Source: Syntrophorhabdaceae bacterium (GTDB lineage: Bacteria; Desulfobacterota; Syntrophorhabdia; Syntrophorhabdales; Syntrophorhabdaceae). Taken from it: a DNA stretch of 64,000 bases. Of the stretch, positions 16,938 through 41,156 are shown in pieces. The stretch lies in assembly GCA_963665295.1 (NCBI GenBank), contig OY762209.1, forward strand, positions 832,001-896,000, written 5' to 3'. The first letter of the stretch is position 1. Every line of letters begins with the position of its first letter. The notes below the pieces were generated by a model. It worked only from the letters and a program-made list of their open reading frames with translations, made no database searches and was not told the origin of the DNA. Position numbers and translations under genes: made by a program.

Positions 16938-17950
16938 AGGGACGCTCATTAATTAATCAATTCCATTGACATCCGTACCCCTCCCTGATACCATATCTTC
17001 ATGCCGAGAAAAGCTCGCATTGATGTTCCTGGGGCGGTGCATCATCTTATGGTGCGGAGTATCGCCCGAAGCGTCCTCTTCCGTGACGACACAGACAGAA
17101 ATAGATTCATTGACCGCGCTGCAACGGTCTTCACGGAAGGCAAAGCGGGCTGCTACGCCTTCGCCCTTCTTTCAAACCATGTGCATCTCCTTGTCAGGAC
17201 CGGCATTGTTCCTCTATCGACCCTCATGACACGGATCCTGACGGGTTACGCAGTCTCTTTCAACAAACGGCATAAGAGGTACGGCCACCTTTTTCAGAAC
17301 CGCTACAAATCGATCCTCTGCGAGGAAGATCCCTATTTCAACGAGTTGGTCCGTTACATCCATCTGAAGCCGCTCCGGGCGCGCCTTATTCCCGACCTCA
17401 ATACCCTCGACTCCTATCCCTACTCAGGCCATGCAACGCTCATGGGGCGATACGAAAGATCATGGCTCGATACGGACTATGTCCTTTCCCGGTTCGGCTC
17501 GAAAACCCTCTACAGAGCATTTGTGGAGGCAGGCATAAAAGAGGGAAGGCGACATGATCTCACCAGGGCGAATATCAAGGGCGATGAGCGCATCCTGGGG
17601 AGCACGCGTTTTGTCCTTGAAGTAATGAAGTCCGCGGGGGAGGCATGGGAACACACCCAGCGCCTCAAAGTAGAGGGCGTTGATTTCGAGGCTGTCTTAT
17701 CTCACGTGGAGAAGCAGTTCGGTCTTGACCCCGGGGAGCTTCTTCGTCCAGGCAAGTATCCTCGTCGCGTCGCCGCCCGCAGCGTCCTCTGCTATTTTCT
17801 CGTAAGAGAGCTTCACATGACCGCAACAGCAGTGGCCGGGAGGCTGGGTCTAGGTCAGCCCGCAGTAAGCATTGCAGTCGCAAGAGGCGAAGCCCTGGTG
17901 CGAGAGAAAGGCTATAGCATGGCTGATTTGATGGGTTAATGGAGGTCTCT
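16938..17950 (+). mobile_element. RAYT-like Y1 transposase element, copy 1
   Basis: Imperfect inverted ends AGGGACGCTCATTAA and TTAATGGAGGTCTCT; near-identical to 28435-29459. Confidence 0.8.
17001..17939 (+). CDS. REP-associated-type tyrosine (Y1/HUH) transposase
   Basis: MPRKARID, HHLMVR, NHVHLL (HUH), GHLFQNRYKS, VRYIH, C-terminal HTH; 4 aa shorter than copy 2. Confidence 0.88.
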   Translation: MPRKARIDVPGAVHHLMVRSIARSVLFRDDTDRNRFIDRAATVFTEGKAGCYAFALLSNHVHLLVRTGIVPLSTLMTRILTGYAVSFNKRHKRYGHLFQNRYKSILCEEDPYFNELVRYIHLKPLRARLIPDLNTLDSYPYSGHATLMGRYERSWLDTDYVLSRFGSKTLYRAFVEAGIKEGRRHDLTRANIKGDERILGSTRFVLEVMKSAGEAWEHTQRLKVEGVDFEAVLSHVEKQFGLDPGELLRPGKYPRRVAARSVLCYFLVRELHMTATAVAGRLGLGQPAVSIAVARGEALVREKGYSMADLMG

Positions 17951-23866: not shown

Positions 23867-25387
23867 TTACCGTTTGGCAGCCGGGACAGCTTTCGTTTTG
23901 GGGTCCGCCGGCAGGACGGTAAAGGTCCCGGAGTATGTAGTCGAAGCCACTTTGTTGTTCACTTTCAGCGTGTACTGCCCCGGGGGCATGCGGTTGGGAA
24001 TTATAAAGCCTGCGATGCTTCCGCCGGTCTCGGGGCCCATGTACCAGGCTTCGATCGCGCACTCGCGGTCGCCGAGGTAGATGTCTCCTTCCTTGGCACC
24101 GAAATACAGGCCCGCGACCTTGATCACGTCCCCCGGGGCGCCCTCGAGGGGTTCCACGCCCTGTATCTCCGGCGTCTTTATATTGAAAGGCACATCATAG
24201 GTGGTAAAGGATTTCTCACCCTGACGCTTCACCAACACGGGATGCCAACCGGGAGACACCACCCGGTTGATCTGAAAAACGATGGCGAAGTCCGCCCACA
24301 CGAGGATATTCATTTGATCATTCGGATCGTCCCCCAGTCCCACCGTTCCCTTCTTGTTGCCGAAGCCCGGGCCCACGAGGACTGCGTGTGATCCCATGGT
24401 GCCTTTCAACTCCACAAGAGGCGATACTTGAAGGTACCAGGAATCGGTCTCCAGCTCATGATGTGAATTTTCGCCCACCGCCTTCACCGTGCTGTCGGAT
24501 TTGAGGCCCACGGTGTGGTTATGACCCGCCGCCGCGTCTATGATATCCGTCCAGGAGCCGACGTTCAGTTGACCACAACCATTATTGCCCGTTGCCGTCA
24601 TTGTGCCGTCGGATTTGAGGCCGATAATGTGGAACGCGCCGCCTGCGACCCGGCTGATACCCGTCCAGGAGCCGACGTCAAACGGATTTCCCCTATCATC
24701 AGTGCCCGCCACCACCACCGTGCCGTCGGATTTGAGGCCCACGGTGAAAAACCAGCCTGCTCCCACCTGTATGATGTTCGTCCAGGAGCCGACGTTCAGT
24801 TGACCGTGGGAATTATCGCCCGTTGCCACCACCGTGCCGTCGGATTTGAGGCCCACGGTGTGGCTGCTGTTCGCTGCAATCCGGCTGATGTTCGTCCAGG
24901 AGCCGACGTTCAGTTGACCGCTATAAAGCTCGCCCACCGCCACCACCTTGCCGTCGGATTTGAGGCCCACGGTGTGCTCATAGCCGGCCGCGACCTGTAC
25001 TATATTCGTCCAGGAACCGACGTTCAGTTGACCGCGGGAATTGCCGCCCACCGCCACCACCGTGCCGTCGGATTTGAGGCCCAGGGTGTGGGTGCTGCCG
25101 GCTGCCACCTGTATGATATCCGTCCAGGAACCGACGTTCAGTTGACCCAACCTGTTTGTGCCCGTTGCCACCACCGTGCCGTCGGATTTGAGGCCCACGG
25201 TGTGCCCATTGCCCGCCGCGACCTGGGGCGTTATCGCTCCTGCGTGGGACCATGAGATAAGGAGAAACGCGAGCATCAGGAGGAAAACCTCCGGTCTTGA
25301 GTGCCGGTTCCTTGTTGTCTCTTTCATTCTCATAGGTCTATCCCTCCTCATGAACGTGATAATTCCCGGTTTAAGGGCGGCACGCAC
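23867..25387 (-). CDS. Secreted RCC1/BLIP-II repeat protein with C-terminal IPT/TIG-like domains
   Basis: Signal peptide; about seven 38-aa repeats (HTVGLKSDGTVVAxGxNxxGQLNVGSWT); GPGFGNKKG and GLYFGAKEG. The true start is probably 50-60 nt downstream. Confidence 0.85.
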   Translation of the reverse strand: MRAALKPGIITFMRRDRPMRMKETTRNRHSRPEVFLLMLAFLLISWSHAGAITPQVAAGNGHTVGLKSDGTVVATGTNRLGQLNVGSWTDIIQVAAGSTHTLGLKSDGTVVAVGGNSRGQLNVGSWTNIVQVAAGYEHTVGLKSDGKVVAVGELYSGQLNVGSWTNISRIAANSSHTVGLKSDGTVVATGDNSHGQLNVGSWTNIIQVGAGWFFTVGLKSDGTVVVAGTDDRGNPFDVGSWTGISRVAGGAFHIIGLKSDGTMTATGNNGCGQLNVGSWTDIIDAAAGHNHTVGLKSDSTVKAVGENSHHELETDSWYLQVSPLVELKGTMGSHAVLVGPGFGNKKGTVGLGDDPNDQMNILVWADFAIVFQINRVVSPGWHPVLVKRQGEKSFTTYDVPFNIKTPEIQGVEPLEGAPGDVIKVAGLYFGAKEGDIYLGDRECAIEAWYMGPETGGSIAGFIIPNRMPPGQYTLKVNNKVASTTYSGTFTVLPADPKTKAVPAAKR

Positions 25388-28434: not shown

Positions 28435-29459
28435 AGGGACGCTCATTAATTAATCAATTCCATTGACATCCCTACCCCTCCCTGATACCATATCTTCATG
28501 CCGAGAAAAGCTCGCATTGATGTTGCAGGGGCGGTGCATCATCTTATGGTGCGGGGTATCGCCCGAAGCGTCCTCTTCCGTGACGACACGGACAGGGATA
28601 GATTCATTGACCGCGCTGCAACGGTCTTCACGGAAGGCAAAGCGGGCTGCTACGCCTTCTCCCTTCTTTCGAACCATGTGCATCTCCTTGTCAGGACCGG
28701 CATTGTTCCTCTATCGACCCTCATGACACGGATCCTGACAGGTTACGCAGTCTCTTTCAACAAACGGCATAAGAGGTCCGGCCACCTTTTTCAGAACCGC
28801 TACAAATCGATCCTCTGCGAGGAAGATCCCTATTTCAACGAGTTGGTCCGTTACATCCATGTGAATCCCCTCCGGGCGCGCCTTATTCCCGACCTCAATA
28901 CCCTGGACTCTTATCCCTACTCAGGCCATGCAACGATCATGGGGCGATATGAAAGACCATGGCTCGATACGGACTATGTCCTTTCCCGGTTCGGCTCGAA
29001 GACCCTCTACAGAGCATTTGTGGAGGCAGGCATAAAAGAGGGAAGGCGACATGATCTCACCGGGGGCAACCCTGCGACGAATATCAGGGGCGATGAGCGC
29101 ATCCTGGGGAGCACGCGTTTTGTCCTTGAAGTAATGAAGTCCGCGGGGGAGGCATGGGAACACGCCCATTGCCTCAAGGCAAAGGGCGTTGATTTCGAGG
29201 CTGTCTTATCTCACGTGGAGAAGCAGTTCGGTCTTGACCCCGGGGAGCTTCTTCGTCCCGGCAAGTACCCCCGTCGCGTCGCCGCCCGCAGCGTCCTCTG
29301 CTATTTTCTCGTAAGAGAGCTTCACATGACCGCAACGGCAGTGGCCGGGAGGCTGGGTCTAGGTCAGCCCGCAGTAAGCATTGCAGTCGCAAGAGGCGAA
29401 GCCCTGGTGCGAGAGAAAGGTTATAGCATGGCTGATTTGATGGGTTAATGGACGGCCCT
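28435..29459 (+). mobile_element. RAYT-like Y1 transposase element, copy 2
   Basis: Imperfect inverted ends AGGGACGCTCATTAA and TTAATGGACGGCCCT. Confidence 0.8.
28498..29448 (+). CDS. REP-associated-type tyrosine (Y1/HUH) transposase
   Basis: HHLMVRG, NHVHLL, GHLFQNRYKS, RYIHVNPLRA. Confidence 0.9.
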   Translation: MPRKARIDVAGAVHHLMVRGIARSVLFRDDTDRDRFIDRAATVFTEGKAGCYAFSLLSNHVHLLVRTGIVPLSTLMTRILTGYAVSFNKRHKRSGHLFQNRYKSILCEEDPYFNELVRYIHVNPLRARLIPDLNTLDSYPYSGHATIMGRYERPWLDTDYVLSRFGSKTLYRAFVEAGIKEGRRHDLTGGNPATNIRGDERILGSTRFVLEVMKSAGEAWEHAHCLKAKGVDFEAVLSHVEKQFGLDPGELLRPGKYPRRVAARSVLCYFLVRELHMTATAVAGRLGLGQPAVSIAVARGEALVREKGYSMADLMG

Positions 29460-29483
29460 ATTGTTCCACGTCCCTGTTGCCCC

Positions 29484-29660
29484 AAGAACTTCGTGCCGGC
29501 CCTGATCGAGGAAGGGGATGAGCTATACCCAAACGGAATATTCGTTTTCAACATCACCAAGATGCTCACGTTCATACAAAGCCATCCTGAGAAGTTCATT
29601 CCTGAGAGGGTAGCGATAAGGGATTATACACACGGGCTCCCCTCTATCAAGGAAGCCGAC
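29484..29660 (+). pseudogene. Internal fragment of a hypothetical protein
   Basis: KNFVPALIEEGDELYPNGIFVFNITKML... reads as protein-like, starts right after the element junction, and has no RBS or start of its own. Confidence 0.4.
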
Positions 29661-29847
29661 CCCACGGATACCTCCGGCGTGGCGGGTGCCAAGAGGCAAA
29701 CCTTAATGGAGCGAGAAAGCGCAAGGGTTGATGGTTGATGATTCCCCCAACAATATAAGGGGATACTGCGGTTGATTATCCGTCGGGCCTTATTAAACTC
29801 GCGAACGCTTGCTTTGGTGTGCGTACAGACTATCTGAGCATTTCTGT

Positions 29848-32832
29848 CTAATAGTACTGTCGGATGTATCCGTAGGCTTTGTCGAAAAGCTCCTGATCAG
29901 TATGGAGCTTATACCTAAGGAGGGTTAGCCTCAGCTCTTTTTGCACCAGCCGCTCTCCCTGGCTTGTATGCTGCCAATCGGGGAAGCGAACCTTTTTGAC
30001 TATGTCGTCGATGTCCGCGACGATGCGCTCGACGATAATGTGGGTATTCTTGCCCTTGGCCTCCTGAAAGAGTTCGGTCAAAGCCTCCTTTGCCCGATCC
30101 CGTTCTTCCTCGGGGTCGGTCTCACGCTCAGATTCCAGTACATCCTTGGCGACTTCGAGGATGGCCTTCAGGAATTCAAGGCTCGTGAGGAAACCCTGCT
30201 CATGCCGCTCTTTAATCTTCTCAAGCCTTTCTCCCAGGGCGGTAAATTTGGGGTTGCCAAGGTGCTTGCGCAGGCGCACAATAAGCTGAATCTCTATTTC
30301 ACGGGCCTTCTTTGCGGGTTCGGCGTCCTTCAGTATCTCTTCCAGCACCTGGGCATCCATTACAAGGGTCTCCACATCGTCACGGATGGACTCGACATGG
30401 ACGTTCTCGTTGATCAGCTCCACAGTCTTCGCTCCCAGTGCGTGCCAGAGAAGCTTGCCGTTGCCGCTTGGCGGTTTTACCGATTCATAGACTTGCGTGA
30501 GCCAGCGGTAATCTTTTTCATAGGGGCTCAGCACGGGGTCCGGAGAAAGGGCCTCCCAGATGGTTCCGATCACTATGTACCGGGCGGCGAACTTGTCGCG
30601 CGCCTCGTTGTTAGGCAGGCATTGCTGCGCAGCCATCAGGCCCTCGTAGCCACCCACGCTCCGGTCCACGCCCGGGAAGAAGGCAAGGCATCTCTGCATT
30701 TGCACGGGCAATGCCTTCCGCAACTCATCGATGTTCGACACCACCTGCTGCACGGCTTTCTCGTCGAAGTCGAGCGCCCGCGCCACGTCGTCAAAGATGC
30801 CGATATAGTCCACGATCAGGCCGTGGGTCTTCTCCTGACCGAAGGTCCGGTTGGTCCGGCAGATGGCCTGGAGAAGGTTATGGTCCTTCATGGGTTTGTC
30901 GAGATACATGACCTGCAGGATCGGGGCGTCAAATCCGGTGAGGAGCTTGCTCGTTACGATGACGAACCGGAGCGGGTCGGTAGGGTCGCGGAAGCGGTCG
31001 AGGAGCTTCTCTTCTGCGTCCTTGTCCCGGACGTGCTCCTTCCACCCGGATGGGTCTCCCTGAGCTGCGGTCATGACAATGGCGCTCGCTTCAGGACCGA
31101 CCAGTTCGTCCATCACGGCCTTGTAGAGCACGCAGCACTCCCGGTCGAGTACGACCACCTGAGCCTTGAACCCGCTCGGCTCCACCTTGGTCCGGAAGTG
31201 ATTGACCATGTGGCTCACCACCGCCCGGACTCGCTCGGGGTTCTTGACGAGGACCGCCATCTTTGCCGCCCGTTTGGCGAGGTCGTCCCTGTCCTGCTCG
31301 CTCAGGTTCCCCGTTATCTCCTTATAGGCCTCGTCGATGGCCGTCTTGTCTATCTTCAGCTTCACTTCCGGCGCCTCGAAGTGGAGCGGAAGGGTTGCCT
31401 TGTCACGGATGGAATCCTGGAAGGAGTAGCGGCTCATGTAGCCTTTCTCGTCTTCGTCCGCTCCGAAGGCCCAGTAAGTATTTCGGTCCGCACGGTTGAT
31501 GGGCGTACCGGTGAGGCCAAAGAGAAAGGCATTGGGCAATGCCTCCCGCATCTTGCGGCCGAGATCGCCCTCCTGGGTCCTGTGCGCCTCGTCAACCATT
31601 ACAATGATGTTCGAGCGTTCATTGAGCCTGCCGTCCGCCTCGCCGAACTTGTGAATGGTGGTGATGAGCACCTTCCGCACATCCTGCGCGAGGAGGGTTT
31701 GCAACTCCTGGCGGGTAGCGACACCCACCATGTTGGGCACATCCGAGGCATTGAATGTGGCGGTGATCTGCGTGTCGAGGTCGATGCGGTCCACCACGAT
31801 GATTACCGTAGGGTTTCCGAGCCTCGGGTGCATTCTCAGTTTTTGGGCGGCAAAGACCATGAGCAGAGACTTCCCGCTTCCCTGAAAGTGCCAGATAAGG
31901 CCCTTCTTCGGGTAGCCCTTCACCACCCGTTCAACGATCTGATTTGTGGTGAAATATTGCTGATATCGGCAGATGATCTTGATGCGCCGGTGTTTCTTAT
32001 CCGTCGCAAAGAGGGTGAAGCTTTGAAGGATGTCGAGCACCACCTCGGGTCGGAGCATGCTCTCCACACTGGCCCGGACATGGTGAAGTTGGCCTTCCTC
32101 CCGGTTCTCCTCGTCCCTCCAGGGACCCCACATATCTATGGGCATGCGAATGGAACCGTACCGGAAGAGGCGTCCTTCGGTGGCGAACGAAAAAACGTTC
32201 GGCACGAACATGGCCGGCACTTGTTTTTCATAAATCTCATTTATCTGGAAGGCTCCATCAAACCATGTAACCGCGCTCCGGGTCGGCGTCTTGGCTTCAC
32301 CGATCACAAGGGGCAAACCGTTCACAAGAAATACTATATCGAAGCGCTTCTCTACCGCGCCGACCTGGTAGGTCCACTGGTTACAGACGACCAGGTGGTT
32401 GTTGGCAGGGTCGGAGGTATCGACGAGCCGCACGGTTACATGCTCACCGTCAGGCCCGAAGGGCATGGTCTTTTCACCCCTGAGCCAGGCCATGAAGTTC
32501 TCGTTGGTCCGTACCAGGCCGTCGGCCTGGACCGAAAGGAGGATAGCCCGCAGGTTGTAGATAACTTCATCGGCGCGGTCGGGTTGGGCCGCGATTTCCG
32601 GGTTAAGGTGGATCAAGGCCTCGCGTACCCATTGTTCCACCATGACATCGTTGCTCGCACGGGGAAGTTCGGAAGCAGGCATGTAGTCCCAGTTAGTGGG
32701 CCGGAACCGGCCTCCCAAAGATTCGCCATACCGGGGATGAGTCTCTTTGAGAGCCATCGGCTCGCCGCGCGTGCTCCTGCTGATGGCATCGAGAATCATT
32801 TGTTCGACGGTATTCGATTCGGTGAAGGTCAT
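29848..32832 (-). CDS. hsdR: Type I restriction endonuclease subunit R
   Basis: RFDIVFLVNGLPLVIGEAK, WHFQGSGKS, VDEAHR, LTGTP, LLTGFDAP, QAICRTNR. Confidence 0.96.
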   Translation of the reverse strand: MTFTESNTVEQMILDAISRSTRGEPMALKETHPRYGESLGGRFRPTNWDYMPASELPRASNDVMVEQWVREALIHLNPEIAAQPDRADEVIYNLRAILLSVQADGLVRTNENFMAWLRGEKTMPFGPDGEHVTVRLVDTSDPANNHLVVCNQWTYQVGAVEKRFDIVFLVNGLPLVIGEAKTPTRSAVTWFDGAFQINEIYEKQVPAMFVPNVFSFATEGRLFRYGSIRMPIDMWGPWRDEENREEGQLHHVRASVESMLRPEVVLDILQSFTLFATDKKHRRIKIICRYQQYFTTNQIVERVVKGYPKKGLIWHFQGSGKSLLMVFAAQKLRMHPRLGNPTVIIVVDRIDLDTQITATFNASDVPNMVGVATRQELQTLLAQDVRKVLITTIHKFGEADGRLNERSNIIVMVDEAHRTQEGDLGRKMREALPNAFLFGLTGTPINRADRNTYWAFGADEDEKGYMSRYSFQDSIRDKATLPLHFEAPEVKLKIDKTAIDEAYKEITGNLSEQDRDDLAKRAAKMAVLVKNPERVRAVVSHMVNHFRTKVEPSGFKAQVVVLDRECCVLYKAVMDELVGPEASAIVMTAAQGDPSGWKEHVRDKDAEEKLLDRFRDPTDPLRFVIVTSKLLTGFDAPILQVMYLDKPMKDHNLLQAICRTNRTFGQEKTHGLIVDYIGIFDDVARALDFDEKAVQQVVSNIDELRKALPVQMQRCLAFFPGVDRSVGGYEGLMAAQQCLPNNEARDKFAARYIVIGTIWEALSPDPVLSPYEKDYRWLTQVYESVKPPSGNGKLLWHALGAKTVELINENVHVESIRDDVETLVMDAQVLEEILKDAEPAKKAREIEIQLIVRLRKHLGNPKFTALGERLEKIKERHEQGFLTSLEFLKAILEVAKDVLESERETDPEEERDRAKEALTELFQEAKGKNTHIIVERIVADIDDIVKKVRFPDWQHTSQGERLVQKELRLTLLRYKLHTDQELFDKAYGYIRQYY

Positions 32833-34967
32833 GAATGGAAGCGCTCCTTTACGTAGTCGCTCATTTCACTTAAAGGCATGTCCTGCGATGAATTCCCGCT
32901 CCTGACGTAGAATTTCTCCGTCGGCTGGCCGTTCTTGTCCTTTAATCTCAACACCATAGGGTCATTGGCCTTCGATACATCCACCTGACAGACCTCTTTG
33001 TCTCCGACCTCGTGAAATAGGATGCGAATTTTGGAGGCAACAAAGGCGGTCCCGAAGTGCTGATTCAGCAGGTTACGAACGTGCAATTCAAATTTGTCTC
33101 TATCCGCTCCATCCCCCAAGGAGAGATAGTCGCGCTCAAGGCCAAGAATGTTTCCATCATCATCAACACCAATGAGAAGTGTTCCACCTTGAGAGTTTGC
33201 GAATGCAGCCACGGCTTTCATGATCATGTCTTCGAGTTTCTTGTTGACCTCACGTGCCTCGATGTCCCAACGCATTGTTGATTTGAACTCCAGCTCATCA
33301 CTTTCGCCTTCCGCAATCATGTCTTCCAGCGAGACAGGCTCAATCCCTTCTTCCGTAGCGGTAATACTGCCAAGAAAATCGTTGATATGTTTGGCCAGAA
33401 TTTTGCGGCGCTCTTCGAGAAACTTCTCGTAATTCTCTATCTTCCAGAGACTCTCATCTTCGGGGATACACTGTAATTCCAGAGCCTTTGGAAACTTTTT
33501 CCTTACGGCAGCAAGGTAGGCCTCTGCCGACGTGTCCGATTTTGTGCGATTAGCTGCCTGCGTCAACAACGCCCGGTTGGTCAATTCCTGGGCAAGGGCG
33601 TATTTCACTCGGTTTCCAAACCCATAGCCTGCAACCTTTAGCTTCGAGTATGGGAAGATGTGGTCCAGTTCCAGCTGATATTTACTTCCCATATTCTTCC
33701 TCAGGCTAAGACCTGTCGCAAGGCAAACCGCGCCCCGGCTTTTCAGATACCAGCGCACCATGCTGAAAAGAGGATGCTGAATAGCTCTGCCCACAAATTC
33801 GTAGGGCATGATCTCCAGTCGGCTTTCCTCTTCAATCGCCCGCAGCAACTCGTCAAAAGGCTGCTCCGAGTCGGCTACCACGCGCAAATCCCGATCAAGT
33901 TTCTGCGGGAGCTGGCTGACATATCGCGTCCGCACCTGGGAATAGTAAAACCACTTCATCATCTTCCGGATTTCGGTGTCCGTGAGATGTTTTCCGTTCT
34001 TGTCGAAGCAATAGACAATGATCGGCACCAGGGCATAAGGAGAGCTGACTTCATGGATGTGATCTACATAAGCATTCGCTCGCATAAGGTTGACGACATA
34101 GTCAAGCACTTGTTTGTCCAAGCGATCCCACGCTACGCGGATCTTCTCATTGTTGTCGTATCCGTGCAGCTTCCGCATGTCCGAGCCCATATGATACAGA
34201 CAGCCCAGCAGTACATACACAACGAAATCGAGTTTGAACGCGAACCCTTCTTTTTCCAGGGTTGCCAGCTTCGCTTTGAATGTATCCCTTGCTTGCGGCC
34301 AGTAGCCGGATATTTGCGCAAGAGCTAATTCCGCGTCAGTCAGAGCCACACCGCTGGCATTTACCTTATAGAAAATGTCGATGGCTTCTCGAATTGTAGC
34401 CCTGACTGGGATAGTCTGTTCGGGGAAATCGCGATCCCTTATATGTGTTATGGCGTTAATATTCTCATTAAGACGCTTAAGATCTTCCATATTGATACTC
34501 CTGCCTAGCTCCGTAAATCTGGCCTGTAGATCGAAAGCGCTTACCTTCCCTTGGAATACGTCCGTAATGTTCTGCCAGAAAGGGTTATTCTCCATCCTGC
34601 TCTTCATGTAGTAGGAAAGTTCAAGGGTGTCTATATTTACGTAAAGCCCACGGGTGTCGTTCATTATTTCGGGAGCCGTATAGTACGGCGGAATCTGGCC
34701 CCGGATCAGCATGTAGAGCGTGGTAATGCGCTGCTGCCCGTCCAGCAGAACCCGAACAGCGCCCTGTTTCTCGTCATATTTGTGAGGCCCTTTGAGTTCA
34801 GGCGGACTTGCGGTCTCCCACGTTAACATAGTCCCCGTTGGGTATTCTTTGATCAGCGAATCTATTAATTGTTTTGCATCGTCTTTCTTCCACACGTATT
34901 CTCTCTGAAATGCCGGAACAAAAAGCTGCTTTTCTTCAATCTTGTCAAGAATGGTTGAGATCTTCAT
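32829..34967 (-). CDS. GmrSD-like DUF262/HNH protein fused to a C-terminal Schlafen/AlbA_2 domain
   Basis: VPAFQREYVW, LLDGQQRITTL, ELDHIFP...NRALL...N; then GESDELEFKS...AVAAFANSQGGTLLIGVDDDG. Confidence 0.85.
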   Translation of the reverse strand: MKISTILDKIEEKQLFVPAFQREYVWKKDDAKQLIDSLIKEYPTGTMLTWETASPPELKGPHKYDEKQGAVRVLLDGQQRITTLYMLIRGQIPPYYTAPEIMNDTRGLYVNIDTLELSYYMKSRMENNPFWQNITDVFQGKVSAFDLQARFTELGRSINMEDLKRLNENINAITHIRDRDFPEQTIPVRATIREAIDIFYKVNASGVALTDAELALAQISGYWPQARDTFKAKLATLEKEGFAFKLDFVVYVLLGCLYHMGSDMRKLHGYDNNEKIRVAWDRLDKQVLDYVVNLMRANAYVDHIHEVSSPYALVPIIVYCFDKNGKHLTDTEIRKMMKWFYYSQVRTRYVSQLPQKLDRDLRVVADSEQPFDELLRAIEEESRLEIMPYEFVGRAIQHPLFSMVRWYLKSRGAVCLATGLSLRKNMGSKYQLELDHIFPYSKLKVAGYGFGNRVKYALAQELTNRALLTQAANRTKSDTSAEAYLAAVRKKFPKALELQCIPEDESLWKIENYEKFLEERRKILAKHINDFLGSITATEEGIEPVSLEDMIAEGESDELEFKSTMRWDIEAREVNKKLEDMIMKAVAAFANSQGGTLLIGVDDDGNILGLERDYLSLGDGADRDKFELHVRNLLNQHFGTAFVASKIRILFHEVGDKEVCQVDVSKANDPMVLRLKDKNGQPTEKFYVRSGNSSQDMPLSEMSDYVKERFHS

Positions 34968-36214
34968 GGTCTGCCCTCTATTACATTGTGATTAGTGTCC
35001 GCCATGCACAGTTCGATAAGGGTCTGCCGAAGCCGGAGCACCCTGTCCATGTGACTCTTGATACTTAATTCCACCAAACGAATCTGGTCAAATTCCTCTG
35101 CGATTTTCTTCTGCTCGCGCTTCGGCGGTACCGGCATCAGAAGCCTTCCAAATCTTTCGGCTCCAAGATGAGCAATTGAGGTTGTCTGGCTCGCGATGGC
35201 CGCAAATACTCCTGAATGAAAACAATGCTGAAAAAAGGCCAGAGCATATTCAATCAACACATCTTCGCCTGCGCGGTATCGAACCAGAGTATTTTGAAAA
35301 CAGCAGTCCTCGATTTTCCCATCGTAAACGGCGCATCTACCTACCAGTTCTCGGCTTTGGCCCTCATTAAGAAGGATGTCGCCGGGCTGAAGGCGGTAGA
35401 CTGCAAAGTCATGCTCGTCGAAGTCCATTTGCAGAACATCGTTGTAGTCAATGAAGCCGTGAAAAACGTTTGCCACTCTCAAGTAGGGCTTCATAGAAGT
35501 ACCCTTCTGGTATTTTGGCGCTCGCTGCCTCCCAAGCTGAACCGTCCCCGTTTTGTAAACCGGCACCAAGCTGGTCTGTTCTGCTCCGGCAAAGATGGAG
35601 CGCAGATACGATCCGCGAAATTCTGCCGCTGCCCCAGCCATTGTCACAGAAGAAGATACCCCCTGTTTCGCCGCCCATAGTATTTCCGCAATGCGCTGCT
35701 GCTGATCGAGGGGCGGGAGGGCGAACTCAAAGCTGGCAAGACTGGTCCAGTTGGTGCGAGGCGAGAGCGAGCCCGCGGAAGTTCCCACCGCGTGCTCAAA
35801 GAACCGGTCTGTCATGCAAAGGAAAGGCAGGAGTTCGGGCAGGAGCCGGTCGTTCTTGGGGGCAAGCACATAGATGTCCCCTGATACGACCGCATCAAAC
35901 TCAGCCACAGCCACCTTGCGCTGGTAGGCACGTCTTTTGCCGAAGAGAACCTGCCCAGGTCTGCACTGACGCGTGAAGGTGGTCCCGTCCGCCACATTAC
36001 CCCACGTCCGTATATGCAAGGAACCTGGTTCAAGATGCTCCAGCCCGATGAATCTTTCCACCCCGGCCCCTTGTGGGTCCCTCTCTGATTCGTTCAGGTT
36101 TTCGACCACATCGCCAAACCGGACGCGCTTCCACCCCTTCCTGTCAAAAATAGGCAGCTTTGCCCAGTCAGGATTGGGTCGGAGGCCGTCGAGAGGAGAA
36201 GGCGGAAAGATCAC
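34964..36214 (-). CDS. hsdS: Type I R-M specificity subunit
   Basis: GWKRVRFGDVV, LPPLDQQQRIAEIL, PVPPKREQKKIAE; GTG at 36214 gives a 4-nt overlap with the upstream stop. Confidence 0.9.
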   Translation of the reverse strand: MIFPPSPLDGLRPNPDWAKLPIFDRKGWKRVRFGDVVENLNESERDPQGAGVERFIGLEHLEPGSLHIRTWGNVADGTTFTRQCRPGQVLFGKRRAYQRKVAVAEFDAVVSGDIYVLAPKNDRLLPELLPFLCMTDRFFEHAVGTSAGSLSPRTNWTSLASFEFALPPLDQQQRIAEILWAAKQGVSSSVTMAGAAAEFRGSYLRSIFAGAEQTSLVPVYKTGTVQLGRQRAPKYQKGTSMKPYLRVANVFHGFIDYNDVLQMDFDEHDFAVYRLQPGDILLNEGQSRELVGRCAVYDGKIEDCCFQNTLVRYRAGEDVLIEYALAFFQHCFHSGVFAAIASQTTSIAHLGAERFGRLLMPVPPKREQKKIAEEFDQIRLVELSIKSHMDRVLRLRQTLIELCMADTNHNVIEGRP

Positions 36215-37713
36215 GACTTCCTTCCTGTGAGCCATGCGCGGCCCTTTGCGGTGACGCGGTATTTTTGGAGACGACTGTTCGGTTTGTCGGGGATCGTCAT
36301 CTCGATGAGTCCCGCGTCGAGGGCCGGGACGAGATAGGCCTTGCGGAAATGCTCGTCATCCTTGAGACCCAGGGCTTCCTGAATTTCTTTCCTTGCCATT
36401 TCACCCTTGATGGTCTTTACCACTTTCCCGACTTCCGGGGTGACTTCCGGGGTGACTTCCGGGGTGACTTCCGGGGTGACTTCCGGGGTGACTTCGGGAG
36501 CAGGCCGCCACAGGGTCTGGACGAACTGTCCTCCATCCTGTCGGAACGCAGGCGGTTTCAGGCCTGCTTCCTCGCAGAGGGCTATAATATCAAGGGTACC
36601 CGTACCGGCCTTCTCAATGTAGCGGGTGAGGAAGAGAGGATCGGCCAGCAACGGGTTGTGGGGAATGGAGGCGTGGGGCACGCGAAGCAGGTCGGGGGTC
36701 AGCGTGGGCGGAAGATGCCCCGGATTCCAGACTTCGAGGCGGTCCGAAAAGAGCATGACCTGGACAGAAGCATGGGAGGCATAGTCTCTATGGGCTACGG
36801 CATTGACGATTGCCTCGGCAACAGCGTCGCGGGGCAGTTCGTAGGTCACGGGCGCCGTTGGCCCTTCGGAGCGGGTTCCCACGCTTCGGTTGATCTTGGA
36901 CATCACGAAATCGACGGCCTGGTCCACAAGCTCGAATACCGTGCCCCGGTAAATCTGGTATGAAGGGATGGGCTTACGAACCTCACGGCCGTGGAAATGA
37001 AGGCACTTCACCTCGGATGAGATAAGGAATCGTTGCGGCTCCCTGCCAAAGAGAAGGATTGCCGCATGACTCGGTCGGTCGTGATCAAGGAGGTTCAGGT
37101 GGGCGAGCGCCTTGTGCATTGCCGTGTCAGGACCGAGCGCGTAGCCACGGCTTTGCCGCGCGCGCTCCAGAAAGTCGGCCACCTTCTCTCTGGAAAGATC
37201 TTCAATCGTGGCTCCGGGGCAGTAGGACGCATCGAAAGGTCTCGTATGGACGGTCCCCTTTGCCACGAGGTATTCGACGAGGCTCGCATATACCAGGGCA
37301 GTCAACTCCGCAATGTCCCCAAAGCGCCGTCGGTTAAGCTGGTCGCTCGCCTTGCCGACGAGAGCTTTCATCTTCGGATGTCGATCTTTGTCGTCACTTC
37401 CTTTGACAAATATGAGCCGCTCTTTGCCGCTGGCAGTGGCCCGGTCAAATTCGTGCTCGGTGGGTGACACCCCTGTTTCATCCTCGTGGCCGTACTCCTT
37501 TCCGAAGAGGCCCAGATAGACGGCGGCTCGATCCACTTCACCCAGATAGAGCTCATCGGGCCTCTGGCCGGAGGCCGGCAAGTCCTCAAACAGAAAGACA
37601 TGGAAGAAACGGCGCAGGAGCGGGTCGCCCTCTATGAAATCACGAACCGCGCGCCGTTCGGGGGCGAGTTCTTTTTGTACGGAGCTGACAAATATGCGCC
37701 CTTTCCCGGTCAC
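36211..37713 (-). CDS. DUF4062 domain + HATPase_c_4 (RecG-C-like) + C-terminal HTH protein
   Basis: RIFVSSVQKELAPER, YLGLFGKEYG, SPTEHEF; EAIVNAVAHRDY, RLEVWNPG, IEKAGTG; MTIPDKPNSRLQKY. Confidence 0.8.
   Translation of the reverse strand: MTGKGRIFVSSVQKELAPERRAVRDFIEGDPLLRRFFHVFLFEDLPASGQRPDELYLGEVDRAAVYLGLFGKEYGHEDETGVSPTEHEFDRATASGKERLIFVKGSDDKDRHPKMKALVGKASDQLNRRRFGDIAELTALVYASLVEYLVAKGTVHTRPFDASYCPGATIEDLSREKVADFLERARQSRGYALGPDTAMHKALAHLNLLDHDRPSHAAILLFGREPQRFLISSEVKCLHFHGREVRKPIPSYQIYRGTVFELVDQAVDFVMSKINRSVGTRSEGPTAPVTYELPRDAVAEAIVNAVAHRDYASHASVQVMLFSDRLEVWNPGHLPPTLTPDLLRVPHASIPHNPLLADPLFLTRYIEKAGTGTLDIIALCEEAGLKPPAFRQDGGQFVQTLWRPAPEVTPEVTPEVTPEVTPEVTPEVGKVVKTIKGEMARKEIQEALGLKDDEHFRKAYLVPALDAGLIEMTIPDKPNSRLQKYRVTAKGRAWLTGRKS
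36430..36495. repeat. 12-bp tandem repeat x5.5 encoding (PEVT)n
   Basis: GACTTCCGGGGT repeated perfectly five times, plus a partial copy. Confidence 0.95.
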
Positions 37714-39203
37714 AGGCTCTTTCCCTCCAGGATAGCGCTTAATGATCGTCGCAAATGACGCGAGCTTTCCAGCCAGTCGGCGAGGGCTTTGGTAAGCTGG
37801 TCAGACCCGGGCGTTTTACCTGCCTCCGCTGAAGAAGGTGAGCCCGTCACATAGAGCGGGATGCTGAGATTGTAACTCCTGGCCCGAATTTCCTCCTGTG
37901 CGGCCGCGCAGGTAAAGCCAGGTTCGTCCCTGAACTCACGATAGGCTTCAACGATACGCGCAATATGCTCGTCGGTAAGAAAACTCTGGGCACGCTCTCG
38001 TGTAACCTCGTTCACCGCATTGATGAAGAGAATCCGGCCCCTCCTCGCCGCAGGTTTGGCTGTTCGGCATATGACGACGCAGGCCTCCATGGGTGAGTTG
38101 TAGAAAAGATTCGGTCCAAGGCCGAGGACACACTCAATGAGGTCGGCTTCAATGATCTTGCGACGCATCTCCGCCTCTTCCCGGCGAAACAGTATGCCAT
38201 GGGGGAAAAGAATAGCCGAGCGGCCCGTTTCGGGCTTAAGGCTCATGAGGATATGCTGCCAGAATGCATAGTCGGCCCGTCCCTGGGGCGGGGTGCCGTA
38301 AATGTTGCGACCCCAGGGATCGGATGCGAAGGCTTTCCGGTCCCACTGCTTGATGGAATAAGGAGGATTGGCGAGGCACACGTCAAACTGCCGGAGGCGG
38401 TCGCCCTCAACAAGCTTCGGTTCCGAGAGTGTATCCCCTCGAACGACTTGAAAGTCCTCAATCCCATGAAGAAAACAGTTCATCCGCGCAATAGAGGAGG
38501 TCATGAGGTTCCGCTCCTGACCATAGAGGCGGACGTTGCGCCACTCCAGATTCCGATGCCGCAATTGGGCAATGCAGGAAAGAAGCATGCCCCCGGAGCC
38601 GCACGTAGGGTCATAAATGGACTCGCCCGGCTGTGGTTCGAGCATCTCCGTCATAAGATGGACCACAGTGCGGTTGGTATAGAATTCGGCCGCGGTATGT
38701 CCCGAGTCGTCGGCAAATTTCTTGATAAGGTACTCGTAACCCTGGCCCAGTTCGTCTTCCGGAAGATTGGCAAGACTGAGTTCCAGAGTACTGAAGTGTT
38801 CCACAAGGTCTCTCAGCATGGCATCGGAGAGGCGGTCTTTGTTGGTCCATTGGGCGTCCCCGAAAATGCCGTAGAGCTTTTCGGGATTTGCAGTCTCTAT
38901 GGCCCGCATTGCCGACTGAAGTTTTCGACCCACGTTCTTAGCCGCTTGCCGCACCTGCCGCCAGTGCGCATCGGCAGGTATCTGAAACCGATGATTTTCC
39001 GGGAAGGCGGCAAAGTCCACATCTCCGCCTGATTCGTTGAGCGCCTGCTCCGTCTCCTCGTCGAAGACATCACAGAGCCTCTTAAAGAAGAGCAACGGGA
39101 AGATGAGCTGTTTATAGTCGCCCGCGTCAATGGTCCCCCTGAGGAGCGTAGCTGCTCCCCAGAGATAGGATTCGAGTTGCCGTTGGGTAATGCGGACCCT
39201 CAT
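37710..39203 (-). CDS. hsdM: Type I methyltransferase subunit, NPPY type
   Basis: YDPTCGSGGML, LANPPY, EFYTNRTVV. Confidence 0.95.
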   Translation of the reverse strand: MRVRITQRQLESYLWGAATLLRGTIDAGDYKQLIFPLLFFKRLCDVFDEETEQALNESGGDVDFAAFPENHRFQIPADAHWRQVRQAAKNVGRKLQSAMRAIETANPEKLYGIFGDAQWTNKDRLSDAMLRDLVEHFSTLELSLANLPEDELGQGYEYLIKKFADDSGHTAAEFYTNRTVVHLMTEMLEPQPGESIYDPTCGSGGMLLSCIAQLRHRNLEWRNVRLYGQERNLMTSSIARMNCFLHGIEDFQVVRGDTLSEPKLVEGDRLRQFDVCLANPPYSIKQWDRKAFASDPWGRNIYGTPPQGRADYAFWQHILMSLKPETGRSAILFPHGILFRREEAEMRRKIIEADLIECVLGLGPNLFYNSPMEACVVICRTAKPAARRGRILFINAVNEVTRERAQSFLTDEHIARIVEAYREFRDEPGFTCAAAQEEIRARSYNLSIPLYVTGSPSSAEAGKTPGSDQLTKALADWLESSRHLRRSLSAILEGKSL

Positions 39204-40720
39204 ATGAGCAGGCCCTCCCGCTTCAAGATAGCGGCGAGCTTTTCCTCTGCCGCAAACGCTGCTTCGGCGCTTTCTTTGAGCCGTTTCACGGCCTCATCCA
39301 TCGTCAGCACTTCCTGATCGGCTAAAGGCTCCACATAGCGGGGAATATTGAGATTATGGTCGTTGGCGGCGATCTCGTCGAGGCTCACTACCCGGGCAAT
39401 ACCTTTCACATCCTTGTAATCCCGATACCATTTGTAGATATATTCGACGTGCTCGGGGAGAAGCTCATTTTGGGCCCTCCCGGACTTGAACTCTCGCGAG
39501 GCGTCCAGTATGAGCACCTTCTTCTTCCGTTCTTTGGTCTTGCGCTGCCTGAGGACCAGGACACAGGCGGCCAGGCCGGTGCCATAGAAGAGATTCGGCC
39601 CAAGGCCTATGACGGCTTCCAGGAGGTCCATCTGCAGGATCTTCTGTCGTATGGTCCCCTCCTTTCCCATTCGGAATAGCACCCCGTGGGGCAACACTAC
39701 GGCCATCCTGCCCGTGGCGAGGGCCATGGATTTGATCATGTGTTGCACCCAGGCATAATCTCCCGTCTTTGAGGGCGGCATTCCGGCAAAGTTCCGACCA
39801 TAAGGGTCGTTTGTCCACACCTCTTCGCCCCACTTCTGGAGTGAAAAGGGCGGATTGGCGATGACGCAGTCGAAGGTGGCAAGGTTGTCTCCCGAGAAGA
39901 ATGCGGGTTGGCGCAAGGTATCGCCTCGCACTACCTGGAAATCGCTTGCGCCATGATGAAAGAGATTCATCCGGGCTATGGCGGAGGTAGTGAGATTCTT
40001 TTCCTGGCCGAACAGCTTGCCCCAAAGCGTCCTGTCGTCTCCGTGATTCTCCTTTACGTGATGAACGGCTTCGAGTAACATACCGCCGGTGCCGCAGGCC
40101 GGGTCGTAAATGGACTCTCCTTCCCTGGGATCGAGAATATTAACCATCAGCCTCACCACCGAGCGTGGTGTATAAAACTCACCTGCTTTCTTATTCGTGA
40201 GATCGGCAAACTTCTTGATCAGGTACTCGTAAGATTGGCCCAGGATATCCGCCTGAGCCGACTGGTTGCCAAGCGCAATTCCTGAGAAATGTTCAATGAG
40301 GTTCTTGAGCAGGGCGTCGGGCAGACGGTCTTTATTGGACCATGCGGCGTCGCCGAAAATGCCATAAAGCGTCTCGGGGTTCGCCTTCTCTATGCCGCGC
40401 ATAGCCTTTTGAAGGGCTTGGCCGACATTCGTGCCGACCACCCGGACATCGCTCCAATGACAGTCTTCCGGGATTTGAAACCTGTAGTTCTGAGGGAAGC
40501 GGGCATATTCTTCATCGCCATCCGACTCGGCCAGGGCAGCCACATACTCCTCGTCGTAGACATCAGAAATACGCTTGAAAAAGAGCAGGGGGAAGACATA
40601 GGTCTTGAAGTCGGCGGCATCCACGGGGCCGCGCAGGATGTTCGCAGATTCCCAGAGGTGGGCCTCAAGCAGGCTTAAGGTGGCTCCGTTCGCGCCATTT
40701 TTGTTCATCGAGTTTGCCAT
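39200..40720 (-). CDS. hsdM: Type I methyltransferase subunit, NPPF type
   Basis: GEFYTPRSVV, YDPACGTGGML, IANPPF. Confidence 0.95.
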   Translation of the reverse strand: MANSMNKNGANGATLSLLEAHLWESANILRGPVDAADFKTYVFPLLFFKRISDVYDEEYVAALAESDGDEEYARFPQNYRFQIPEDCHWSDVRVVGTNVGQALQKAMRGIEKANPETLYGIFGDAAWSNKDRLPDALLKNLIEHFSGIALGNQSAQADILGQSYEYLIKKFADLTNKKAGEFYTPRSVVRLMVNILDPREGESIYDPACGTGGMLLEAVHHVKENHGDDRTLWGKLFGQEKNLTTSAIARMNLFHHGASDFQVVRGDTLRQPAFFSGDNLATFDCVIANPPFSLQKWGEEVWTNDPYGRNFAGMPPSKTGDYAWVQHMIKSMALATGRMAVVLPHGVLFRMGKEGTIRQKILQMDLLEAVIGLGPNLFYGTGLAACVLVLRQRKTKERKKKVLILDASREFKSGRAQNELLPEHVEYIYKWYRDYKDVKGIARVVSLDEIAANDHNLNIPRYVEPLADQEVLTMDEAVKRLKESAEAAFAAEEKLAAILKREGLLI

Positions 40721-40954
40721 TGGGAACAGTGTGTTTAGGTTTATTCGCTATAATTCTTAATTTTCCACGCGACATTGTCAAGGTAAATCCGGTCCGGGAT
40801 TGAACGGGAGACGATTGGAATAGCCCTCTCCCCTAATACTAACCACACTGTTGATTGTTGATACTCGGGCAAGTCCGAGATATACTGCCACATCACGTAA
40901 TTGGTCAGCTTCTCAGGCGTGCGGGGTGTATGGGCAAACCTTAATGTAGTCATT

Positions 40955-41156
40955 AGGGACGTCCATTAAATAATCAATTTCCCTTGACATCCGTACCCCT
41001 CCCTGATGCCATATCTTCATGCCGAGAAAAGCTCGCATTGATGCCGCAGGGCCCTTAGAGCCGACCCGCTGTCCCGGGAGATCGAGGGCATACTGCCGGT
41101 TTCCAGGGTGAGGGGTGAAAGAGGTGACTAACGTCACTATGCCGAGGATGTCCCCT
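40955..41156 (+). mobile_element. Internally deleted derivative of the RAYT-like element
   Basis: Left end, promoter and first codons MPRKARIDAAG (ATG 41019), then unrelated sequence ending GGATGTCCCCT. Confidence 0.8.

Follow-up and report, generated by a model that had tools for sequence, protein, structure and literature searches.

Does a gene that joins a GmrSD-type nuclease to a Schlafen domain, and that lies between hsdS and hsdR of a type I restriction-modification (R-M) operon, guard that operon or simply travel with it? The question is posed by a 64,000-nucleotide stretch of a Syntrophorhabdaceae bacterium genome (assembly GCA_963665295.1, contig OY762209.1, positions 832,001 to 896,000; hereafter ‘the window’, to whose numbering all unlabelled coordinates refer), in which an open reading frame (ORF) on the minus strand (32829-34967, ATG start) encodes a fusion protein of 712 amino acids and shares 4-nt ATGA overlaps with both hsdS (34964-36235) and hsdR (29848-32832). 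The answer we favour, at about an even chance, is that this one gene encodes an autonomous anti-phage protein with two effectors and moves about as cargo, being found here in the hsdS-hsdR slot of an operon of the N6-methyladenine/N4-methylcytosine (m6A/m4C) kind.

Three regions can be distinguished in the fusion protein. The N-terminal section (residues 3–218; 34314..34961, minus strand) is a DUF262/GmrSD_N domain, a ParB/Srx-fold NTPase matched by Pfam (PF03235, E 8e-31) and by alignment to the BrxU structure 7p9k, with F20-Q21-R22, D76-G-Q-Q-R80 and F199xxxN203 in its translation. It is followed by a DUF1524-type HNH nuclease region (residues 396–537; 33357..33782, minus strand) that carries D435-H-I-F-P439, N464 and N473; support for this assignment comes from the HEC-05 profile and the BrxU fold match, both of which span the region, Pfam giving only a weak HNH_4 match (E 0.006, below cut-off) and no GmrSD_C match on this protein, with weak GmrSD_C matches on its relatives. 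The C-terminal section is a Schlafen/AlbA_2 domain (residues 546–712; 32832..33332, minus strand), matched to SLFN_AlbA_2 (PF04326) at residues 555–697 (E 2.5e-19), in which E555-S-D-E-L-E560-F-K562 (33282-33305, minus strand) forms the catalytic Ex4ExK motif.

The top PADLOC match is HEC-05 (residues 2–533, E 9e-50), reported to be the same protein as BrxU (Payne 2024, bioRxiv 2024.01.29.577857), whilst no PrrC profile in PADLOC matches the fusion protein and an NCBIfam search returned no model for it. Amongst PDB sequences 7p9k scores best (E 1.6e-11); mammalian Schlafens come next and align to residues 555–659. In our AlphaFold2 model (mean predicted local distance difference test 76, predicted template modelling score 0.53), residues 1–538 match BrxU (Foldseek E 1e-11, identity 16–17%); the VIA comparison gives Z 16.6–17.3 but a root-mean-square deviation (rmsd) of 15–16 Å, as the domains are differently placed. 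Also by VIA, residues 543–712 match DIP2311 (Z 13.5, rmsd 3.4 Å, 141 residues aligned) and SAMD9 domains (Z 12.0–12.1, rmsd 3.6–4.0 Å, 156–159 aligned). BrxU is reported to need S42, Q101, R102, D474 and H475 and to tolerate R38A (PMC8565348). These essential residues have counterparts in the fusion protein, where S37 aligns to BrxU S42 (alignment to 7p9k); the RLFDS nucleotide-binding motif of BrxU reads QLIDS here, with its essential serine kept.

Is this arrangement maintained? A word-based search with the fusion protein gave 2490 matches among 7998 scored candidates; PF03235 and PF04326 are both present in all of the best 120 matches listed, and the best 119 non-self homologues listed are 76–84% identical, those that are named belonging to one archaeon and to several groups of bacteria. 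Going by these sequences, the subfamily is widespread and well conserved. For a closer view we took 89 loci (from genome contigs the 8 of 19 with >=54% identity, 1 plasmid, and the 80 best-scoring of 359 metagenome loci), which with the window make 90 copies, 72 of them intact and full-length and 64 remaining after dereplication at 95%; the other 18 copies run off a contig end, are split or truncated, or are interrupted (in locus L056 by a transposase). The GmrSD/BrxU motifs QR, DGQQR and FxxxN occur in 64/64 members, as do the D, H and two N residues of DHIxP...N...N, and F20/Q21/R22, S37, DGQQR, F199/N203, D435/H436/N464/N473, E555 and E560 are invariant across the same set, with K562 kept in 63/64. 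Median ratios of nonsynonymous to synonymous substitution (dN/dS), from 12 non-independent pairs, are 0.032 for DUF262, 0.027 for the linker, 0.037 for HNH and 0.054 for Schlafen, the latter being the least conserved domain (mean identity 60%, against 68–75%). All three catalytic sites are maintained.

The initial annotation of this stretch had reported DUF262 motifs, DHIFP and a Schlafen domain in one ORF with 4-nt overlaps, a description that translation, Pfam, PADLOC and fold matches bear out; it had also staked its proposal on the Schlafen catalytic residues, and these are conserved, as described above. The sequence data thus confirm an intact, well-conserved defence gene with GmrSD-type DNase and Schlafen RNase domains of predicted activity. 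Single contigs of two public runs (X2 and X3, one of which may be the source sample) span 29685-36458 with 0 differences, and the gene is the sole PF04326 match in the whole genome. No relative of the fusion protein was found in viral contigs; phage records gave 7 partial matches, 20–26% identical to the core, none of which extends to the Schlafen part. Short proteins of 268–311 amino acids with a closely related Schlafen domain occur in the same phylum (L024, L025, L027, L028, L029, L031 and L033); their Schlafen domain is 37–42% identical to residues 546–709, and their N-terminal part is without a significant Pfam match in the 3 scanned.

An HNH site that is invariant in the clade of the window gene would also suit an ordinary modification-dependent (type IV) DNase of the BrxU sort, in which the Schlafen domain is an accessory that binds nucleic acid or cuts DNA and not an enzyme acting on transfer RNA (tRNA). 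The lower conservation of the Schlafen domain is in keeping with such an accessory, as is P0123, a tail-less close relative (55% identity, 539 amino acids) which indicates that the core can stand alone. We nevertheless consider this explanation unlikely: E555/E560/K562 are conserved under purifying selection, the characterised bacterial Schlafens are reported to cut tRNA (PMC13056530), and, amongst relatives of the core, the tail outlasts the HNH site in several lineages and has its place taken in others by HEPN-like RxxxxH tails.

This last point derives from a search with the core (residues 1–537) against all 50%-identity representatives, which returned 5941 matches; the tail set consists of 105 of the best 150 representatives listed, each of at least 500 amino acids, with tails sorted by Pfam (68 of 150 scanned), motif and BLAST clustering. 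A Schlafen tail is present in 38, none in 43, a ‘DLAWP’-motif tail in 18, a HEPN-like tail in 5 and another tail in 1; RxxxxH is found in 5/5 of the HEPN-like tails, and 2 of them give a sub-cut-off match to HEPN_Swt1. On the core tree, proteins with a tail are intermingled with proteins that lack one: as far as sequence can tell, the tail on the GmrSD core is gained, lost or swapped. The DLAWP tail, of ~115 amino acids with a conserved DLAWP(D/E)G and no Pfam match, we presume to resemble a Vsr-like nuclease fold; it unites 17 clustered representatives (P0163, P0172, P0173, P0179, P0180, P0182, P0183, P0190, P0193, P0195, P0198, P0207, P0209, P0214, P0217, P0256 and P0263), in some of which RAMA, Mrr_N or DUF5655 domains come after it.

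With the HNH site scored as degenerate by D/H-H plus N473, decay is seen in 13/38 Schlafen-tailed, 2/5 HEPN-like, 4/18 DLAWP and 3/43 tail-less representatives; the Fisher p of 0.004 for Schlafen-tailed versus tail-less forms is overstated, kin not being independent. Loss of the site takes 6 changes on the tree, at least 5 of them forced, and the losses were confirmed by local realignment. Within the 13 degenerate Schlafen-tailed proteins, DGQQR is kept in 11 (1 altered, 1 not covered) and Ex4ExK is kept in 11; P0135 and P0153 are natural HNH-dead relatives. We infer that attachment of an RNase makes the DNase dispensable but not the NTPase core, as would follow if the core served as sensor and switch for the tail; this suggests that the GmrSD part may act as a sensor that switches on an RNase. 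The pattern of tail swaps and HNH decay on a GmrSD core is what this analysis adds. The window-gene clade itself keeps both nuclease sites.

In another reading the Schlafen domain would be the main effector, with the DUF262 core sensing something besides base modification (nucleotide levels, DNA ends or a phage protein) and the HNH site being secondary. Roughly one in three of the Schlafen-tailed relatives tolerates loss of the HNH site, and the host encodes C5-methyltransferases. The genomes of phages T7, T5, T4, T2, T3 and T6 are a mix of modified and unmodified. All six are reported to be blocked by EcoSlfn7 (WP_028985442.1), a DUF262-Schlafen protein that protected Escherichia coli against T2-T7 when expressed away from any native operon (PMC13056530). 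Set against this are the HNH residues, invariant in 64/64 of the clade, and the PADLOC best match of EcoSlfn7, which is NsnA / PD-T4-2 and not HEC-05, placing it in another DUF262 lineage; we consider such a sensor-RNase unlikely for the window gene.

What, then, of the surrounding operon? The initial annotation had tied the gene to type I R-M in the manner of PrrC, a protein of ABC-ATPase/HEPN architecture that occupies the same hsdS-hsdR position as a guard of R-M. By analogy, the fusion protein would bind the type I complex, and the Schlafen RNase would be freed when an Ocr/Stp/ArdA-type inhibitor blocks R-M. The ATGA coupling and the position between hsdS and hsdR would fit such a guard, as would the locus labels, which were assigned by hand from BLAST, Pfam and custom hidden Markov models and place a type I gene nearby in 40/89 loci: the gene lies between hsdM/S and hsdR in 12 (in 5 of those directly, no gene in between), after hsdS with the contig ending before any hsdR in 12, before hsdR in 2, after hsdR in 9, and flanks or faces a type I operon in 5. 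A further 13/89 have it by other R-M or BREX-type genes and 36/89 by none of these systems, many of the latter having short flanks. When only the 28 loci with >=2.5 kb on both sides are considered, 9 are inside type I operons, 5 beside them, 5 next to other systems and the remaining 9 next to no such system, so that half of these well-flanked loci (14/28) are without a type I gene and near-obligate embedding is not seen.

On the gene tree (74 rows: 64 family members plus 10 outgroup rows) a three-member clade that includes the window gene, with 99% support in the Shimodaira–Hasegawa-like approximate likelihood ratio test, lies wholly inside type I operons with two methyltransferases, again as a guard might. 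Across the tree as a whole, however, the type I label takes 19 changes (>=12 forced) against 22.7 when shuffled, with 27/500 shuffles as low. The gene also adjoins unrelated type I subfamilies (HsdR 24–36% as against 72–85% identical), which argues against a co-evolved interface. Seen from the side of the operon, an orthologous hsdR is present in 10/400 other genomes sampled from the phylum: in 5/10 regions hsdS, or an apparent M2-S fusion, abuts hsdR directly; 3/10 hold other cargo (Fic; an ABC/SMC-type ATPase; DUF559); in 1/10 no hsdS or hsdM was seen in the fetched region; and the fusion gene is present in 1/10, from the same genus, leaving the slot without it in 9/10.

Association with type I systems is thus frequent but optional both ways, unlike that of PrrC, which is reported to be almost exclusively embedded in type I systems and ABC-ATPase based (Payne 2024, bioRxiv 2024.01.29.577857). 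A guard could still draw on the distant EcoSlfn7 being strongest against T7, an Ocr phage (PMC13056530, PMC11411939), but, with family members lying within type I operons, on either side of them and apart from them, the PrrC-like tie does not hold up and we rate a guard function as very unlikely; the fusion gene has the look of mobile cargo. The published pSlfn7 table gives type I neighbours for 6/11 genes of ~705–715 amino acids and 0/44 of ~580–625 (PMC13056530), counts that cover 64 of the 109 main-table rows and groups formed by length alone, with homology checked for one row. The hsdS-hsdR slot is shared in some relatives with further genes: a PADLOC PDC-S06 ATPase protein (L037:7298-9859), a SIR2 + HerA pair (L074:10855-14351) and an Mrr_cat protein (L001:9040-9966).

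How might an autonomous two-effector protein work? In our proposal the DUF262 domain would bind and hydrolyse nucleoside triphosphate (NTP) and change oligomeric state on meeting foreign DNA, the most likely trigger, by analogy with BrxU, being DNA with modified cytosines; the intact HNH site would then degrade that DNA. The same switch could release or cluster the C-terminal Schlafen domain, whose conserved Ex4ExK site would cut tRNA and halt translation as an abortive second layer, a substrate and a coupling suggested by the tail-swap pattern and by RorSlfn5, which is reported to cut tRNA after its own trigger (PMC13056530). Embedding may give co-expression and complementary cover, type I acting on unmodified DNA and the fusion protein on modified DNA. 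For BrxU itself, NTP binding is reported to be coupled to dimer dissociation, with hydrolysis needed before DNA containing 5-methylcytosine (5mC), 5-hydroxymethylcytosine or glucosyl-5-hydroxymethylcytosine is cut (PMC8565348). The narrower version, in which one polypeptide with three live sites uses a BrxU-type NTP dimer/monomer switch to gate both HNH DNase and Schlafen tRNase, we put forward tentatively, as less likely than not. The dual effector of the initial annotation fares well in that both sites are intact and conserved, and DNA and tRNA cutting stays a good hypothesis. Autonomy is favoured by the family occurring with and without type I operons, and by the protection that EcoSlfn7 (DUF262 plus Schlafen, no HNH) is reported to give outside its native setting.

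Several observations weigh against this proposal. Identity to BrxU is just 16–17%, so the trigger need not be a modified cytosine, and two PF00145 C5-methyltransferase genes found elsewhere in the genome by Pfam search, one with intact PCQ and ENV motifs, would if expressed conflict with BrxU-like promiscuous 5mC cutting. T7 DNA is unmodified. It is T7 against which EcoSlfn7, with only two short local matches to the fusion protein, was strongest (538-fold), and the second pSlfn7 protein tested, EluSlfn7, did not protect (PMC13056530). Exclusion of the 18/90 damaged copies biases our count toward conservation, the Fisher test takes no account of kinship, and part of the tail-less set may consist of fragments. 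Anti-phage and nuclease activities of this subfamily are predicted.

Were the coupling true, a Schlafen tRNase would be turned on by a sensor of DNA modification and not by a phage protein, which would bear on whether Schlafen fusions of different kinds are activated in a common way, posed as an open question in the account of the class (Nat Microbiol 2026, PMC13056530). Were the three-site switch true, a type IV restriction enzyme would first clear modified phage DNA and then step up to abortive cleavage of tRNA; the repeated HNH decay would then record the passage from restriction enzyme to pure RNase sensor, HNH-less forms being its functional end point. With three catalytic motifs that can be separated, and with natural variants that are HNH-dead, tail-less or HEPN-tailed, the subfamily makes a convenient test set. 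As it stands, a three-site, HNH-retaining subtype of predicted activity within a published class, together with the HNH-decay pattern, is of moderate interest.

The host operon consists of six overlapping genes on the minus strand: hsdM1 (39200..40720; NPPF motif, predicted m6A subunit), hsdM2 (37710..39203; NPPY motif, predicted m4C subunit), a second embedded cargo gene encoding DUF4062, HATPase_c_4 and Fic-like_C domains (36211..37713), hsdS for the type I specificity subunit, the fusion gene, and hsdR for the restriction subunit. The methyltransferases were recognised by translation and Pfam, the second cargo gene by Pfam, HsdS by PADLOC and Pfam, and HsdR by PADLOC, Pfam and NCBIfam; the two methyltransferase genes and the DUF4062 gene had been overlooked by the initial annotation. 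m6A/m4C type I systems are defined by the order M1(NPPF)-M2(NPPY)-S-R, with extra ORFs between genes reported as common (Morgan et al. 2016, PMC5100572); the same order is found here, and we predict that the operon is such a two-methyltransferase system. GC content is 0.49 for the fusion gene and 0.54–0.59 for the other five, in line with cargo. A candidate promoter for the whole operon, sigma70-like and matching consensus at 10/12 positions, lies 33 nt upstream of hsdM1 (40753..40781, minus strand); it is a consensus match only, the scan finding 10 sites where 6.5 ± 2.5 are expected by chance, and promoter and terminator scans of the window as a whole being close to chance level.

Other parts of the operon vary in relatives. 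In an orthologous operon, SLFN_AlbA_2, HATPase_c_4 and Fic-like_C (L135:5525-6922) occupy the slot of the DUF4062 gene, so that the N-terminal effector there appears swappable between Schlafen and DUF4062, and in two orthologous two-methyltransferase operons a different DUF262 gene lies between hsdM1 and hsdM2 (L074:4042-5769 and L129:8032-10263). Inside the DUF4062 gene, 36430-36495 is a perfect 12-bp tandem repeat of 5.5 copies, in frame and encoding (PEVT)n, at which the run contigs break. The operon is flanked by a 73-nt direct repeat (28458-28530 and 40979-41051, 93% identical), which is the start of a Y1/IS200-like transposase gene (28498-29448) and its remnant across the operon; a further Y1 transposase is encoded at 17001-17939. 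A contig joint that passes over 29449-40951 was considered as an empty site and dropped, its short side being 26 letters and both ends multi-copy sequence, and no run-contig joint that removes the fusion gene alone is listed. The window holds no tRNA genes and so no tRNA-anchored island; it also encodes an RCC1-repeat protein (23867-25387, minus strand) with a 114-bp internal repeat of 6.6 copies. Elsewhere in the genome, the C5-cytosine methyltransferase genes (G000:C1:3708333-3709430 and G000:C1:2525728-2527062) lie amid small unannotated ORFs of prophage-like appearance.

Placed amongst known systems, neither the architecture of the fusion gene nor its genomic position is new, and the novelty implied by the initial annotation shrinks accordingly: DUF262-Schlafen proteins form the published class pSlfn7 (DUF262-Slfn; 109 members, two tested; Perez Taboada et al., Nat Microbiol 2026, PMC13056530), and the presence of GmrSD-like genes between hsdS and hsdR has been described as well. 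The fusion protein has the N-terminal DUF262 and C-terminal Schlafen domain with Ex4(E/D)xK by which the class is recognised, and the catalogued member WP_014554916.1 is 35.6% identical to it over full length, which puts our subfamily inside pSlfn7. Both tested proteins are of the ~590-amino-acid type, and in the available parts of that account the ~710-amino-acid HNH-bearing type is neither separated nor tested (PMC13056530); nor did we find a characterisation of an HNH-retaining GmrSD-Schlafen protein in literature whose subscription journals and supplementary tables were incompletely covered. EcoSlfn7 was rejected as a close orthologue: it is 589 amino acids long, comes from a P2-like prophage and has no HNH or GmrSD_C match, differing thereby, as well as in its local matches and PADLOC profile, from the HNH-bearing fusion protein.

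BrxU/HEC-05 (7P9K, 7P9M) ranks first for residues 1–537 whether compared by profile, sequence or fold, and shares DGQQR, the S42 equivalent and DHIxP, whilst differing in its low identity, its length of 587 amino acids without a Schlafen tail, and its RLFDS in place of QLIDS. For position, the closest precedents are RloF, a GmrSD-like gene exactly between hsdS and hsdR (Machnicka 2015, PMC4619093), TgvAB (PMC11411939) and embedded HEC-05/06 (Payne 2024, bioRxiv 2024.01.29.577857): all place a DUF262 gene within a type I operon, as here, but the available descriptions mention no Schlafen domain, and TgvAB is a two-protein system. ParB(DUF262)-HNH-HEPN fusions including VNG7073, known from prediction only (Anantharaman et al. 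2013, PMC3710099), likewise append an RNase to a GmrSD-type DNase, with HEPN instead of Schlafen, much as the HEPN-like tails do on relatives of the window-gene core. The m6A/m4C two-methyltransferase systems share with our host operon, predicted to be one of them, both gene order and interspersed ORFs. PrrC, lastly, is alike in being a tRNase-type effector in a type I operon, but it is built from ABC-ATPase plus HEPN rather than from DUF262, HNH and Schlafen, and it keeps almost exclusively to type I operons where the fusion family is often found outside them.

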